Source: a virus (taxonomy: Duplodnaviria > Heunggongvirae > Uroviricota > Caudoviricetes). Taken from it: a stretch of 47,228 nucleotides of DNA. Shown here in pieces: positions 1,569 to 42,099 of the stretch (positions are counted from its first letter, which is position 1; each line of letters opens with the position of its first letter). The translations under genes and the position numbers were made by a program. The DNA lies in IMG/VR virus record IMGVR_UViG_647533161_000007; one strand, 5' to 3'. Under the pieces are notes generated by a model. It was not told where the DNA came from, did no database searches, and saw nothing but the letters and a program-made list of their open reading frames with translations.

Positions 1569-2069
1569 CAACTATTCAGATACATCACTCCCATCACATT
1601 CATTCCTCCGCATCAAAGGCATATAGGCTATATCACCTTGATATTTTTCTTCTTCAGATAAAAACTGTTATCTATGTATACTTTTAAACCCAATCCGTGT
1701 AGAGTCTCTGCATAAGATAGTTTGCAGTTGCCGCTTCAGCTTGCGCCATAAACCGCCTGATTTTTGCTGCCACCTGTTAGCATTCCTGTATACCTGAAAC
1801 GACAATGTTTATCTACGAACTTTAAGAACACCCAAGATAAAAATTGTCAACTATATCATATATAACACATTACTAATTCGAGGCTATATGAACAGCATAC
1901 TGATAATCACTTCTCTCCTTATCATATTCAGCATTTTTAGTCATGCCCTAATAAAATTAGGGATTGGCATATCCAATAACCCAGACAAAACCGATGTATA
2001 AGCCAACATATCCTGAATCAGACATACAATATCGCAATGAAAATCAATAATATTTTAAGGAATATCTTC

Positions 2070-2303
2070 ATGAAATCAAAAGACACCCTAAAGTGGTTCC
2101 CTGCGCAGCTTCCTGAAGTAAGAATTATCCTAGGGGATGCTGTAGTGGAAGTAGCAAAACAGGGAAGACCTATCAATACCAGAACATTGCTTGATTACAT
2201 TGAAGGAAACATAAAGAAAAAATCATGGCTGGATAACAAAGAATTATTACAAACAGCGATATCAGTTCTTAAAGACAACCAAAATTTAAATGGTAAAATG
2301 TAA
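2070..2303 (+). CDS. ydfK: YdfK-like small protein (77 aa)
   Basis: ORF 2037..2303; internal ATG at 2070 preceded by AAGGAA (2056-2061) gives 77 aa MKSKDTLKWFPAQLPEV..., matching recalled K-12 YdfK length and sequence. Confidence 0.7.
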   Translation: MKSKDTLKWFPAQLPEVRIILGDAVVEVAKQGRPINTRTLLDYIEGNIKKKSWLDNKELLQTAISVLKDNQNLNGKM

Positions 2304-2619
2304 TATAATAAACTTACTTTTTTATCATTTTTCCACTTTAACAACATTTTGCTCCACTTTTCCACGACCAAACAACTTGAAATCTGGTTAAAATAACACG
2401 CAACACTATTCTTCTTCCTTGAGTCCGCCCGGAACTCGAAAAACAAACCGAGTTAAAGCCATTTTTCACAAAATCGATTTTGGGTCTCACCAAAATTACG
2501 GGGTTGCATACGCATTCGTTTATTTTCGAACGTGTACATACAAATATGTACAAAAATAATCAAAATTATTTTCTGAGATGCATTATGATATGAACACCAA
2601 TTTCGTATAGAATCTCACT

Positions 2620-3210
2620 ATGTCTCGAATTTTTGCTTACTGTCGGATATCAACGCTGGATCAGACCACCGAAAATCAACGCCGGGAAATCGAAAGTGCA
2701 GGTTTTAAAATCAAACCTCAGCAAATAATCGAAGAACACATTAGCGGCTCAGCAGCAACCAGTGAGCGTCCTGGTTTTAACCGGTTGCTTGCTCGCCTGA
2801 AATGTGGTGATCAATTGATTGTGACAAAACTGGATCGCCTTGGTTGTAATGCAATGGATATCAGGAAAACAGTGGAACAACTGACCGAAACAGGTATCAG
2901 AGTGCATTGCTTAGCATTGGGGGGCATTGACCTGACCAGTCCAACAGGAAAAATGATGATGCAAGTAATTTCAGCAGTCGCTGAATTTGAACGAGACCTT
3001 TTACTTGAACGCACTCATTCCGGGATAGTAAGAGCCCGCGGCGCAGGGAAACGTTTTGGTCGACCACCTGTGTTAAATGAAGAACAGAAACAGGTGGTAT
3101 TCGAACGAATTAAGTCAGGTGTAAGTATAAGTGCCATTGCCCGGGAATTCAAAACCTCGCGGCAAACCATTTTAAGAGCCAAAGCAAAACTTCAGACACC
3201 TGACATATAA
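2620..3210 (+). CDS. pin: Serine recombinase, DNA invertase of the Pin/Gin/Hin family
   Basis: 196-aa ORF; N-terminal catalytic motif RISTLDQ (Ser nucleophile), resolvase fold, C-terminal HTH; located beside tfa/stf as in Qin and e14. Confidence 0.9.
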
Positions 3211-3307
3211 AAAATAATCTCGGTGTGAGATGCTTTACGTCTTCCAAGCCCCCTTCCTTGCCGTAAATGGAAAGATACATCTAATTATAGAATTTATATG
3301 TTTTACC

Positions 3308-3883
3308 CTACGGCAGTGCTGGCCATTCAATATCCTGTGCAGTTGACGTATCAACACGGTTCAGCAATACCCGATACTTTTTCCATGCTTCCAGCAACGA
3401 GATTTCTTCCTCCGTTGCAATTTCCAGATCTGCAGCATCCTGAAGCGGCGCAATATGCTCACTGGCTACCTGCATCAGGTTGTTTTTTGTTTCTTCCGCC
3501 TCCCGGATCCGGAACAGTTTTTCTGCTTCCGTATCCTTCACCCAGGCTGTGCCGTTCCACTTCTGAAACTCCCCTTCCGGGGATAACCAGGTGACATTTT
3601 CCGGTAATGGGCCAAGTTCAGAAATAAATAACGCGTCGCCGGAAGCCACGTCATAGACGGTTTTACCCCGATGATCTTCAACGAGATGCCACGATGCCTC
3701 ATCACTGTTGAAAACAGCCACGAAGCCAGCCGGAATATCTGGCGGTGCAATATCGGTACTGTTTGCTGGCAGACCTGTATGAGGCGGAATATATGCGTCA
3801 CCTTCACCAATAAATTCATTAGTTCCTGCCAGCAGATTATAAATTTTTATGGTCCGTGGTTGTTCACTCATTCTGAATGCCAT
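3308..3883 (-). CDS. tfa: Tail fibre assembly protein (Tfa)
   Basis: 191-aa ORF immediately downstream of stf with TAATG stop/start overlap at 3881-3885; typical Tfa size and position. Confidence 0.85.
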
Positions 3884-6799
3884 TATGCAAGCCTCACAAT
3901 GTAGTTAAATGCGATGTTTTTGACAGTGTTTTCCGCGTTACCAGCAGCGTTAACGGTGATGGTGTGTCCATGTGAGCCAATCGCAACAGAGTGCGTATGA
4001 GCACCAATACCGACAGTATGTGCGTGAGCACCTGCAGATGCAGCTGTGCCGCTGACACTATGAGTGTGCGCTCCTGCAGCACTTGTATTCACACTGGCCG
4101 CAGACACTACCTTATGTACTGACCCATTTTGTGACCACTGGCTGACTGCTGATGCGCCTGTGACACTATGAGTATGGTTTCCGGCACTTGCGGCTGTACC
4201 GCTCACACTGTGCGTATGCGCCCCGGTGTTATTCGTGGATTTAGTGCCGTAATCAAACGACGATGTGGTTTTCGTCCCCAAATCCGTACTGGATGCACTG
4301 GCGCTGTGGGTGTGCGATTTAATGCCGTCCTGTTCCTGAGACAATACGGCCCGACCACTGGCAGGTTTGCCCTTAATCGTCCAGCCACGCATATCAGGGA
4401 TCACGCCTGACGGATAAGCGGTTGCAAGTTTCGGGTAAGCGGATTTGTCAAAAGTCTGCCCCTGCATCAGGGCATAACCAGACGGAACGGTATCTGATGG
4501 CCACGGGATTGGTGCGCCAGGCGGATAAAACTGCTCTGATGGCGTATAGAGTGAATAAACTGTACCGTCCGTTAACCCTTCCGGCTTATTAGCAGAATAT
4601 GCTGGTGACGTATGAATAGTCACGCTGGCATTACTGGTATAATCCCATTGAATATTTACACCAGTCGCATAATTTCCGATTGCAACGTAAATATCGTAAG
4701 TATCACCAGATGTATTGACCCAGGCAAAATTTGTAAACCCTGTCGATGTGCGCTGCCATAAAGCACCAGTAATCCCCTTCGGATTACCATTACCTGCACG
4801 CAAAACAAGTTCAGATATACCTGCCTGTTGAGGTGACCCCACGTTAAATCCCGCGCCACCAATCAACGTAATTGAAACAACAGAACTCGCCTGTGGCATG
4901 GTTACCGTTGCTAATTTGAACCAACCAGCACCACCGCTGAATGACATTGTTGTTGAGTTAAGCGTACCAATATCTTTCGGCGTCAGTGTTATATCCGCTG
5001 AAAGCGCCTTACCATTCACCTTACGGGCAGAAGGTACCCGACCATTCGCATTATCATTAGCTGCTTTCACTGCTTTCGGTGTCGCGGCAAGCGTTTCAGA
5101 TGCGCTGTTGGTTGCACTACTGAGCTGGACAATTCCTTTTTGTGCTGTCGTAGCGTCCTGAGCAGTATATTTCCCGTTAGCAAGGTCATAGGCTGCCTTT
5201 ACCGACTTTGGCGTTGCCGCCAGCATTTCAGATGTGCTGTTGGTCGCGCTGCTGAGCTGAACTATCCCTTTTTGTGCTGTCGTTGCATCCTGTGCGGTGT
5301 ATTTCCCGTTAGCCAGCTCATACGCGGCCTTAACGGCTTTTGGCGTTGCCGCCAGTGACTCGGAAGTGCTGTTAGTCGCACTGCTGAGCTGTACTATCCC
5401 CTTTTTCGTCGTGCTCGCATCCTCAAGCGCCACGGCGGATGCAATATCCTCTGCCCGTTTTGCCGCTGTCTCGGCGCGCGTTGCCGCGGATTCCGCCGTA
5501 CTTTTGCTCTGAGCTGCCGCCGTCGCACTGCCAGCTGCCTCTGTCGCCTTCGTGGATGCCGTCGTGGCGCTGCCCTTTGCTGCTGACGCCTGTCTGGTCG
5601 CCTCATCTTTTGAAGCAGACGCAGATGATGCCGATGACGCCGCCGAACTGGCGGACGATGCGGCAGCCGTTTTTGAGGATTCTGCGCTGGTTTCCGACGC
5701 TTTCGCGTTCGTCTCGGATGTCTTCGCTGCGGAAGCAGACCTCGCTGCTGCGCTGGCCTGTTCAGTGGCTTCGCCAGCCTTCGTTGTGGCTGTTGAAGCG
5801 GACGATGCGGCGCTTTCTGCCGATTTTCCGGCAGCGGTGGCACTGGCTGAGGCCTGCCCGGCACTTGTTGACGCGGCACTGGCAGACGACGCAGCCGCTG
5901 TTTTTGAGCCTGCCGCAGCTGAGGCGCTCTGTCCCGCTGCCGTCTCAGAAGACCTGGCGTTCGTCTCGGACGTTTTTGCCGCCTTCGCGGAATTTGCTGC
6001 CGCCGTTGCCGAGGAAGCTGCGCTACTGGCGCTCGAGGATGCGTTCGTTTCTGATGATTTTGCCGCCTCTTTTGAAGCCGACGCATCCCGGGCTGAGGTG
6101 GCAGCTTCTGACGCTTTCGTGGTCGCGGTGGATGCAGAAGTGGCGGCTGATTGTTGTGACGCTGCAGCATTCGTTTCTGACGTTTTCGCGGCAGCGGCAC
6201 TGGTAGCTGCCGCGCTTTTTTGAGGACTCTGCAGCGGCAGCACTTTTTTCCGCTTCAGTGGCCTTTGTTGATGCCGTTCCTGCGCTGGAAGACGCTGACT
6301 GAGCCGACGAAGCGGCCTGTCCGGCTGACGTGCTGGCTGCACGTGCTGAATCTGCAGCATCAGTCGCATGGGTTGCCGCCTCACGGGCAGATGTGCCGGC
6401 ATCACTGGCTGACTTCTTCGCGGCTGCCGTGTTCTGTGCCACCACGGACGCGTTACGCGCCACCTCTTCCACCATCTGTTCAAAACGGCGCAGTGCCTCC
6501 GGACGGGCATCATCCTCCGTCATGGCACCGAGAAAATCATTCAGCGTACCGGGTTGAGAATCTTCATACACGGTGATGGTCCCGGCATGTGACGGCGGGA
6601 ATCCTTCCACCAACAGAATAACGCTGTACTGCCCGTACTCAACGTCCATGCTGTAACGCCCGGCTTCATCCGGATTTTCTGAGGCCAGCGTGTTCACCAC
6701 CACCGTGGTGCTGTTACGTTTTGCTTTCAGCTGGATTGTGCAGTTCTGTACCGGTTTTCCTGTGCCGTCTTTCAGTACACCTGAAATCTTTACTGCCAT
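3883..6799 (-). pseudogene. stf: Side tail fibre (Stf), split by a +1 frameshift near 6217-6232
   Basis: N-terminal frame (ATG 6799; MAVKISGVLKDGTGKPVQNCTIQLKA...) and C-terminal frame (3883..6513, ending ...[22 protein letters not shown]) both resemble lambda Stf but are in different frames; switch maps to tcctcaaaaaagcgcggc (minus strand), plus-strand T6 at 6226-6231. Confidence 0.75.
5060..5455. repeat. Three tandem ~132-bp (44-aa) repeats inside stf
   Basis: Repeat landmark ctgagctg at 5120, 5252 and 5384 (period 132); protein repeat [41 protein letters not shown] x3. Confidence 0.8.
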
Positions 6800-6809
6800 A
6801 TTCACCCCA

Positions 6810-6837
6810 CAAAAAAGCCCGCCTGAACCGGCGGGCT
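6810..6837 (-). terminator. Intrinsic terminator downstream of lom
   Basis: Perfect 8-bp stem agcccgcc/ggcgggct (6816-6823, 6830-6837), 6-nt loop, then U6 on the minus strand (plus-strand A6 at 6811-6816). Confidence 0.55.
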
Positions 6838-6863
6838 GTCATAACACTGTGTTACCTGGCTAA

Positions 6864-7463
6864 TCAGAACTTATAACCGACACCCACGATGAAACCGTCA
6901 GTGCGCCAGTCGCCACTGCCGGAGCCTTCATAAGCAATATCAATGGCCACGGATTCGGTCGGGTTAAACTGCACGCCAGCTCCCCACGCCAGAGACGTGT
7001 TGCTGTGGCGACCGTCATCACTTCCGGTCAGCACGTCGTGCGTTTTCCCCTTGTTGTCAGTTACGCGGAGATAATCCCCGGAGAAAGTCGACACACGGCT
7101 GTAAGCCATACCCGCCATCGCATACGCGCTGAACCATTCATTCACGCGCACAGACGGCCCCACCATCACGCTGAACCAGCGGTTACGCACGGAATCTTCA
7201 TGCCAGCGGGTATCGCTGTAACGGGTAAGCTGGCGATTCTTGTCTCCTGCATAGCTGAATGACGTCACCAGCCCCAGTGTGTCCGTAAACTCATAACGGT
7301 ATTTCACGTTAATCCCGTTCAGATCATCACTGCCGGGAACGTTCGTCCGGGCATGAAGATACCCCGCGCTCAGCGTGGACTGATGTTCAGACGCCCATGC
7401 AGGCGCACCGGATACGGCCAGACAAATGGCTGCGGACAAAATGGCGGCATAAAGTTTACGCAT
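6864..7463 (-). CDS. lom: Lom-like outer membrane beta-barrel protein (Ail/Lom/OmpX family)
   Basis: 199-aa ORF with signal peptide and C-terminal ...GYKF; located between J and stf as in lambda. Confidence 0.85.
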
Positions 7464-7529: not shown

Positions 7530-11180
<3,651 letters not shown>

Positions 11181-16637: not shown

Positions 16638-16971
16638 AACGCACACCTCCGGAAATACCTTCCCCAAGATGCATCAGTTCTTCGTCCGTTCGCTCCGGTA
16701 TCCCGTTCTCTTCCGGTAAAAGGCTGAAATCAGCCACCGCAGCATCACTGCTACCGGACACCATTCTCACGATCAATGCCTTCAGCGAGGCAAACTGCGC
16801 ATCCATCCACACATCACTGAAGCTCTGCATCCGGAAATAATCGCCCCACTCACCAAGCTCAGTGGCCGACATTTCCGACAGCATCCGCCGCCAGTCTGCC
16901 CGCCGGAACTCCCGGGCAAGCCGCATGACAAACTGCATTTCCCGCGTCAGGACTTTTCCGGCGTCAGCACC
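16609..16971 (-). CDS. T: T segment: -1 frame C-terminal extension of tail assembly chaperone G (GT fusion)
   Basis: Frame open from 16971 to stop at 16609, overlapping the 3' end of G in the -1 frame; candidate slippery heptamer GGAAAAG at 16953-16959. Confidence 0.7.
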   Translation of the reverse strand, partial: GADAGKVLTREMQFVMRLAREFRRADWRRMLSEMSATELGEWGDYFRMQSFSDVWMDAQFASLKALIVRMVSGSSDAAVADFSLLPEENGIPERTDEELMHLGEGISGGVRYGPDSQPGH

Positions 16972-27732: not shown

Positions 27733-27905
27733 CAGATTAAATTAATCTTGACATCATAGCTTTCAAGACCCGTCATTTTTTCCCGTGCGGTAAACTGAAT
27801 ACTGGTAACTTCTTTCCCGGTCTTTTTCTTAAGTTCAATAATTTTTTTGTTATATATTCAGAAATATCTGCTTCTGCTTTTGTTTTTAAGTTTTCAATAT
27901 TCATC
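27733..27905 (-). pseudogene. GnsB-like gene disrupted by a -1 frameshift in an A7 run
   Basis: ATG 27903-27905 with AAGAGGAA SD; N-terminal frame MNIENLKTKAEADISEYITKK stops after 43 aa; downstream frame encodes ...IIELKKKTGKEVTSIQFTAREKMTGLESYDVKINLI*; restoring one A (plus-strand T7 at 27843-27849) gives a 57-aa Gns-like ORF. Confidence 0.6.
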
Positions 27906-28231: not shown

Positions 28232-28575
28232 GATGGTGTTAACTCCAGTCATCGCTGGCACTACCACTGCTGGTTCAGAGTTAAAAAAACTATGATTTTT
28301 TCATGATGTTACCGTAGTATGTGAGTATCCATCGAATAGATACCAAGCAAAAAAGCTCCCGAAGGAGCCTTCATTTTCACTTTTTTAAATCCAACGACAG
28401 ACGGCTGGCATTTAAGTATTGTGAAATATTATCAAATGTAATCATCATTGATTTACAAAAGATACATTTTGCCCCGAAAGGATTCATGTCAGAAACATCA
28501 AAAGATGATGTTCTATACTGGGAACCATGACAACACGGGCATCTAAAGTGAATATGGTTTGTAATATTGTCTACC

Positions 28576-34706: not shown

Positions 34707-34772
34707 CGGTTTTCTCCGGTGGCACGGTGTTACTCAGCGGGAGTTCAGCCCCGCGCAAGATTGTAGATGAGT

Positions 34773-35024
34773 TTATTCTTCTGCAAAAGCAGAAAAGCCA
34801 GCTTTTATTCCGATCTCTTTCAATGCCTGTAATGAAGTGACAAACTCACCTTCGCGCAAGATAAATCCGTCCGTGACCCGAGCATCCACAAAATTAATTA
34901 ACGCAGCCCCATTCTTTCGCAAACACATAATGCGGTAATGACTAACAAGATTTCCATTTTCAACGCACACAGCATAGAGGCCATCTTCACAAAAAATTTT
35001 ACGCAGTTCTTCGATGTTCATCAT
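34773..35024 (-). CDS. Rem-like hypothetical protein (83 aa), copy inside duplicated gap flank
   Basis: 83-aa ORF in the rem position of K-12 Qin (between ydfU and hokD); identical second copy at 35332..35579. Confidence 0.45.
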   Translation of the reverse strand: MMNIEELRKIFCEDGLYAVCVENGNLVSHYRIMCLRKNGAALINFVDARVTDGFILREGEFVTSLQALKEIGIKAGFSAFAEE

Positions 35025-35214
35025 CAGAATCCTTCCGGATAATTAGCTCTCCCCTTTAAGGGACCATCCCTCTTATCCCTGCGCGCTACTTAAGTATTTT
35101 TGATTCTATTCCGGCACCGTCCAGATCTTCAAACGCGTTGAAAATAAAAACAAAAACCCGCCGAAGCGGGTTAAGTGCGGGTGCGTTGAGGATGCCTGCC
35201 ACATCAGAGGTGGC

Positions 35215-35312
35215 NNNNNNNNNNNNNNNNNNNNNNNNNNNNNNNNNNNNNNNNNNNNNNNNNNNNNNNNNNNNNNNNNNNNNNNNNNNNNNNNNNNNNN
35301 NNNNNNNNNNNN
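35215..35312. other. Assembly gap (98 N)
   Basis: Run of N characters. Confidence 0.98.
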
Positions 35313-35331
35313 GATTGTAGATGAGTTTACT

Positions 35332-35579
35332 TCTTCTGCAAAAGCAGAAAAGCCAGCTTTTATTCCGATCTCTTTCAATGCCTGTAATGAAGTGACAAAC
35401 TCACCTTCGCGCAAGATAAATCCGTCCGTGACCCGAGCATCCACAAAATTAATTAACGCAGCCCCATTCTTTCGCAAACACATAATGCGGTAATGACTAA
35501 CAAGATTTCCATTTTCAACGCACACAGCATAGAGGCCATCTTCACAAAAAATTTTACGCAGTTCTTCGATGTTCATCAT
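35332..35579 (-). CDS. Rem-like hypothetical protein (83 aa), copy adjacent to hok
   Basis: Same ORF as 34773..35024. Confidence 0.45.
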
Positions 35580-35700
35580 CAGAATCCTTCCGGATAATTA
35601 GCTCTCCCCTTTAAGGGACCATCCCTCTTATCCCTGCGCGCTACTTAAGTATTTTTGATTCTATTCCGGCACCGTCCAGATCTTCAAACGCGTTGAAAAT

Positions 35701-35727
35701 AAAAACAAAAACCCGCCGAAGCGGGTT
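35701..35727 (-). terminator. Intrinsic terminator downstream of hok
   Basis: 7-bp stem aacccgc/gcgggtt (35710-35716, 35721-35727), loop cgaa, U-rich tail on the minus strand; duplicate at 35155..35172. Confidence 0.5.
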
Positions 35728-35795
35728 AAGTGCGGGTGCGTTGAGGATGCCTGCCACATCAGAGGTGGCGAGGGATTTCTCCCTCGCCGGGTCTC

Positions 35796-41586: not shown

Positions 41587-42099
41587 ATGGATTTCGACAC
41601 AATCATGGAAAAGGCTTACGAAGAATACTTCGAAGGCCTTGCCGAAGGCGAAGAAGCTCTCAGCTTCAGTGAGTTTAAACAGGCACTCAGAATAAGAATG
41701 CGCTCTCACAATGACGCGGAGCACAAATATGAGAAGCAAAATCAGACCGCAGAAAATTTTGTTCTGGAACCCGGAGAAACGCTTTTCAAAATTCCCGTTA
41801 CGTGCCCCATTTGCGGTTTTACATCAGAAGAACTTGACGACTCCTGTAACAATCAGGAAACAACCAAGTATGTCGAAGATGATACCGAGTGCGCACGAAG
41901 AACGATTATATCCACGAGTCCAAACTCCAGGACCAATAAATCTCACTTTGAGAGGGTGATTAATCCACTCCCCCAAACCAATAAAAAAGATGCCGGAGGA
42001 CAAAAAACCAATGGAACAACGGGATATCTGTCAAAAAAAGACGTTCCATTAAAGACAAACAACGCAGCGCCAACAACTGTAAGCGCTTTATACCAGTAA
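41587..42099 (+). CDS. YdfB/YdfC-like protein with zinc-ribbon motif
   Basis: 170-aa ORF starting 2 nt after ydfA stop; CPICGF motif; K-12 has two shorter genes here. Confidence 0.5.
   Translation: MDFDTIMEKAYEEYFEGLAEGEEALSFSEFKQALRIRMRSHNDAEHKYEKQNQTAENFVLEPGETLFKIPVTCPICGFTSEELDDSCNNQETTKYVEDDTECARRTIISTSPNSRTNKSHFERVINPLPQTNKKDAGGQKTNGTTGYLSKKDVPLKTNNAAPTTVSALYQ

Follow-up and report, generated by a model that had tools for sequence, protein, structure and literature searches.

A one-base frame break in the side tail fibre gene of a lambdoid prophage at the Qin locus is probably a homopolymer sequencing or assembly error

Several described systems resemble a tail fibre gene split by a single base. 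Homopolymer errors of 454, Ion Torrent, PacBio or Nanopore sequencing change a mononucleotide run by one base in one assembly, with indels that depend on run length and no accompanying substitutions, and the genes that they split in a draft are intact in identical relatives; false pseudogenes arising from homopolymer indels have been documented as artefacts for several sequencing platforms (PMC10359078). In λ PaPa a frameshift divides stf, the side tail fibre gene, into orf-401 and orf-314, with loss of side fibre assembly and no effect on plaque formation, as recounted in a passage of PMC12617516 that cites Hendrix and Duda 1992. A tail-related gene is also frameshifted, in this case in a programmed manner, in the λ-type tail assembly chaperone G/GT. 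The heptamer A_AAA_AAG is the classic slippery sequence of E. coli, on which the known slip is -1, as in frameshifts of the dnaX and IS type.

The window, i.e. the whole stretch of DNA analysed here (47,228 nt), contains a full-length lambdoid prophage (~44 kb) at the Qin locus, with the layout rspB / int xis exo ... terminase, portal, capsid, tail genes, J, lom, stf, tfaQ, pinQ, ydfK, ynfT / ydfJ'. This prophage is the intact counterpart of the Qin remnant of K-12. The λ-type gene order J - lom - stf - tfa is present, all on the minus strand, and stf is interrupted by a frame break at a run of six A's, where every close relative has five. The features of this region are as follows.

2620-3210, plus strand: pinQ, serine invertase, adjoining tfaQ
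3308..3883, minus strand: tfaQ, tail fibre assembly gene adjoining the 3' end of stf, chaperone for the Stf C-terminus
3883..6799, minus strand: stf, side tail fibre gene, 2,917 nt as read and 2,916 nt (971 aa) minus one A
6023..6799, minus strand: 0-frame reading of stf as it stands, 258 aa, stop at 6023-6025
6216..6221, minus strand: homopolymer A6 (plus-strand T6), frame break at stf codons 193-194 (TCA AAA AAG)
6864-7463, minus strand: lom
7530-11180, minus strand: J, tail tip gene

As it stands, stf starts at ATG 6799 (an alternative GTG lies at 6805), runs to ...AAAAESSKK and then passes into non-Stf codons before stopping at 6023-6025, giving a product of 194 native Stf residues followed by 64 out-of-frame residues. 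The continuation of Stf is read in the +1 frame, down to 3883 on the minus strand, and the switch between frames lies within TCC TCA AAA AAG CGC (minus strand). A preliminary description of this DNA had assigned both frames correctly; the string that it quoted for the switch, tcctcaaaaaagcgcggcagc, is the minus strand from 6226 to 6206, and the plus-strand T6 run that it put at 6226..6231 is in fact at 6216-6221, so that its position was off by 10. Since the frame break is a direct reading of the sequence and not a statistical pattern, chance is not an issue. Removal of one base, which had been predicted to give a continuous Stf of ~970 aa, yields a protein of exactly 971 aa, which matches throughout the Stf annotated in strain SCAID WND2-2021 (WP_000279113.1) and shared by many complete E. 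coli genomes.

The N-terminal prophage tail fibre domain PF08400 occupies residues 1-134 of both the truncated and the restored protein (E about 6e-73 to 7.5e-72). It is the sole domain kept in the 258-aa reading; restored Stf has PF08400 plus three Phage_fiber_2 repeats and a Collar domain. As read, the repeats and Collar sit in the +1 frame, and stf encodes a single polypeptide once one A has been removed. Inversion by a Pin-type recombinase was considered as the cause of the disruption and was rejected: neither Pin-type crossover inverted repeats nor an alternative fibre and tfa cassette was found around stf/tfa (2000-7000), and the lesion is a single base rather than a rearrangement. pinQ itself appears to be an orphan invertase.

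Intact alleles in related prophages, with which the preliminary description had proposed a comparison, have A5 and a single orf. A segment of 911 nt around the site has 99.9% matches in at least 40 complete E. coli genomes, every one of them 910 nt long, and across the 2,928 nt of an alignment the extra A is all that distinguishes stf from the allele of strain 118UI, which is annotated as intact (2,916 nt, encoding WP_000279113.1). The five complete genomes compared over the prophage likewise have A5. On a larger scale, many E. coli strains with complete genomes, from several continents, carry prophages that match the window without substitutions. Over ~46.1 kb compared with SCAID WND2-2021, the window has six single-base indels but not one substitution. 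SCAID WND2-2021, from Kazakhstan, and three other independent complete genomes, from the USA, Japan and Switzerland, agree with one another at all six indel sites and differ from the window by two substitutions in total, so that the window is the outlier at each site. The six sites, which distinguish the window only, are listed below.

6216-6221: window T6, references T5, in stf
27848 (run 27842..27848): window T7, references T8; gnsB frameshifted, stop at codon 44 of 57
28289 (within 28283..28301): window A7, references A8, in ynfN
28295 (within 28283..28301): window T6, references T7, in ynfN
35330: extra C in the window, absent in the references, in the second copy of rem
42007 (run 42002..42007): window A6, references A7; gene for hypothetical protein WP_000344958.1 frameshifted, stop at codon 171 of 191

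Five of the six are changes in homopolymer length, and the sixth (extra C at 35330) lies 18 nt from a run of N's. The two contractions in ynfN are 7 nt apart and leave a stop at codon 5 of 76. Together with stf, the genes gnsB, ynfN and that for WP_000344958.1 are broken in the window and intact in all four reference genomes. When runs are grouped by their length in the references, two of four eight-base runs and two of 13 seven-base runs are changed, compared with none of 66 six-base runs and one of 177 five-base runs, the last being that in stf; the proportion changed rises steeply with run length.

The window also carries two visible assembly defects, both marked by N's.

8826..9353: run of 528 N's within J, in place of 276 nt in the references
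34759..35769: duplicated flanks around a run of 98 N's (35215-35312), two 457-bp copies, rem included

The 457-bp copies differ by one extra C (35330), such that one rem is intact and the other frameshifted, and in five complete genomes the segment is present in single copy. This arrangement looks like unmerged contig ends, one of them carrying an indel error. A real tandem duplication at the gap was checked for in EH01-18-04-A (NZ_CP063515.1) and discarded, this genome having a single copy at the locus. The part of NZ_CP063515.1 matching 24001-47228 of the window spans 711 nt more than in the other references; the additional sequence, possibly an insertion, lies in the early half of the prophage and not at the rem locus. 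The run in J looks like a wrongly sized scaffold gap; its 252-nt excess preserves the reading frame and lengthens J, as read, from 1,132 to 1,216 aa. Masking by the data provider, in place of scaffold gaps, could in principle account for both runs of N's, but neither their lengths nor the duplicated flanks agree with the references. These comparisons show the window to be a scaffolded and indel-prone draft whose prophage, such defects apart, matches those of many finished genomes base for base.

Of the three explanations that the preliminary description had offered without choosing among them (inactivating mutation, homopolymer error or a recoding site), error is now favoured and recoding fails. 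The extra A at 6216-6221 is probably a homopolymer error of sequencing or assembly, a reading that draws on six indels with no substitutions relative to identical prophages, and on N gaps of which one has discordant duplicated flanks. The change in stf is one of ±1 in run length, is confined to one assembly and is accompanied there by other indels dependent on run length as well as by assembly defects. An over-call of the A-run would have arisen during sequencing or assembly of the draft, placing the stf indel, as we infer, in the same class of error as the other five.

A first alternative is a genuine +1 slippage mutation, from A5 to A6, inactivating stf; any virions would then lack side tail fibres and depend on J alone, like those of laboratory λ PaPa. 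Runs of A are natural indel hot spots, at which rates climb exponentially with run length (PMC8510543). Since real indels also prefer long runs, dependence on run length is not decisive by itself, and it is the ratio of indels to substitutions that decides. The most indel-prone natural background is that of mismatch-repair-defective E. coli. Even there, coding sequences have a mean of 6.02 substitutions versus 0.85 indels, i.e. ~7:1 (PMC8510543). With an indel fraction of ~0.12, the probability of six indels and no substitutions as genuine mutations is, by our calculation, ~0.124^6 or about 4e-6. Given the absence of substitutions between the window and its relatives, far fewer than one real indel would be expected. 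In the same assembly, moreover, five other indels specific to the window occur with no substitutions and alongside visible assembly defects, which argues against a mutation.

The stf event nevertheless differs from its companions, and from typical homopolymer errors: it is an over-call in a five-base run (5 to 6), the sole expansion among the five homopolymer events and in the shortest run affected, while the other four are under-calls, i.e. contractions of runs of seven bases or more (7-8). For this reason, and with none of 66 six-base runs affected, errors at the other five sites would still leave room for a real indel in stf. A real knock-out would also be tolerated, given that stf is dispensable in λ, where PaPa with its split stf still forms plaques. 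The gene in λ PaPa belongs to the same family, occupies the same J-lom-stf-tfa position and is likewise divided into two orfs by a one-base frameshift. However, λ PaPa has lost a base near codon 400, a lesion that is heritable and has been verified, whereas here an A is inserted at codon 194 in one draft and is most likely not real. Against a mutation, too, no other genome with this identical prophage was found to carry A6, and no record of the truncated protein was found. Overall, a genuine mutation is considered unlikely.

A6 was sought in 5,426 complete E. coli genomes, 50,697 phage records and 2.9 million viral contigs. A 61-nt query centred on the run gave no A6 match at 99% identity or above among 2,837 matching E. 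coli genomes (4,017 places), and none at that identity in 22 matching phage records; in this search, A6 combined with a nearby substitution falls in the 95-99% identity band, where it is inseparable from otherwise identical A5 places, a gap partly filled by exact 24-nt A6 scans of viral and metagenome contigs. The exact A6 24-mer had no match in the 2.9 million viral contigs. The A5 form had at least 120 matches there, and all 80 matches listed were the 34-nt A5 form; species-representative genomes gave a single match, also A5. The exact truncated Stf product, with either start codon, was absent from an index of 153 billion genes.

A single A6 match was obtained from the metagenome collection, in contig CYGL01000091.1, which has an stf allele ~93% identical to that of the window. 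A second A-run in this allele is expanded (A4 to A5) 35 nt downstream of A6, and comparison with the closest complete genome revealed eight single-base insertions, each extending a run, within 1.1 kb (4222-5312), including A5 to A6 at the same stf site. This part of CYGL01000091.1 is another error-ridden stretch, in a public contig, and not an inherited allele. An inherited A6 mutation was accordingly set aside: the prophage lineage has no other carrier, and the sole A6 match is this diverged contig with its eight clustered insertions.

λ itself (J02459, ~3084-3100) has an in-frame A6 at the homologous position of stf (TCA AAA AAC GCG). It encodes K-N-A instead of K-S-A and corresponds to a G-to-A substitution relative to A5 alleles, not to an indel.

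Recoding would allow full-length Stf to be made from A6, through +1 slippage of tRNA-Lys on AAA-AAG or through an RNA polymerase that drops one A. The extra A does create A_AAA_AAG in the 0 frame, the same heptamer in the same register as in the -1 frameshifts of the dnaX and IS type, and +1 re-pairing on the A-run would restore exactly ...ESSKSAAATS.... A -1 slip on this heptamer, however, gives a 468-aa product with a tail unrelated to Stf, the productive frame requiring +1 or -2, and the heptamer is owed to the extra base alone. The sequence at the stf run presents neither a slow codon nor a stop codon in the A site, and it lacks an upstream stimulator resembling a Shine-Dalgarno element. 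A modest hairpin is predicted downstream (-27.4 kcal/mol, z = -1.82), but it is not clearly significant, with 10 of 200 shuffled sequences folding equally well and the helix beginning at the site itself. Efficient transcriptional slippage needs a run of about 8-9, and six A's are well below this. Unlike the dnaX and IS-type systems, the window has no conserved stimulators and no conserved arrangement: conservation of two orfs in homologues, which would have undone the idea of a disrupted gene, was seen nowhere, the homologues examined having one uninterrupted orf, with A5 or, in the case of λ, with A6 in frame and a C after it. Recoding was rejected on these grounds (unproductive -1 product from the heptamer register, fold without clear significance, split not conserved) and is regarded as very improbable.

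As a variant of recoding, phase variation could switch the tract from A5 to A6 and back. Strains would then be expected to differ in tract length, as at a contingency locus, but no such polymorphism is seen: only A5 was found among the at least 120 viral contigs and the complete genomes examined, and the tract is 5-6 nt long. It is likewise extremely improbable that A6 is real and gives low-level full-length Stf, by +1 slippage or a dropped A, with a sub-population of virions bearing side fibres.

The same prophage provides a contrast in the overlap of its tail assembly chaperone genes.

~16945-16960, minus strand: tail assembly chaperone G/T overlap (CCGGAAAAGTCCTGA), T in the -1 frame of G

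This overlap is the genuine λ-type programmed frameshift region of the prophage. It is identical in all references, while the split in stf is unique to the window.

Were the mutation in stf real, it would repeat the case of λ PaPa, in which a dispensable side fibre is lost by frameshift, with no new principle involved, and the adsorption rate and host range of the prophage virions would be affected; were leaky expression from A6 true, stf would be a leaky or switchable determinant of host range. If, as appears probable, the extra A is a homopolymer error, the stf of the organism would be an ordinary A5 allele encoding all 971 aa, and the site would be of no biological consequence. A pseudogene or recoding call here would most likely annotate a sequencing artefact, and at least three further genes of the same draft (gnsB, ynfN and the hypothetical gene) would be taken falsely for pseudogenes, along with a false duplication of rem.
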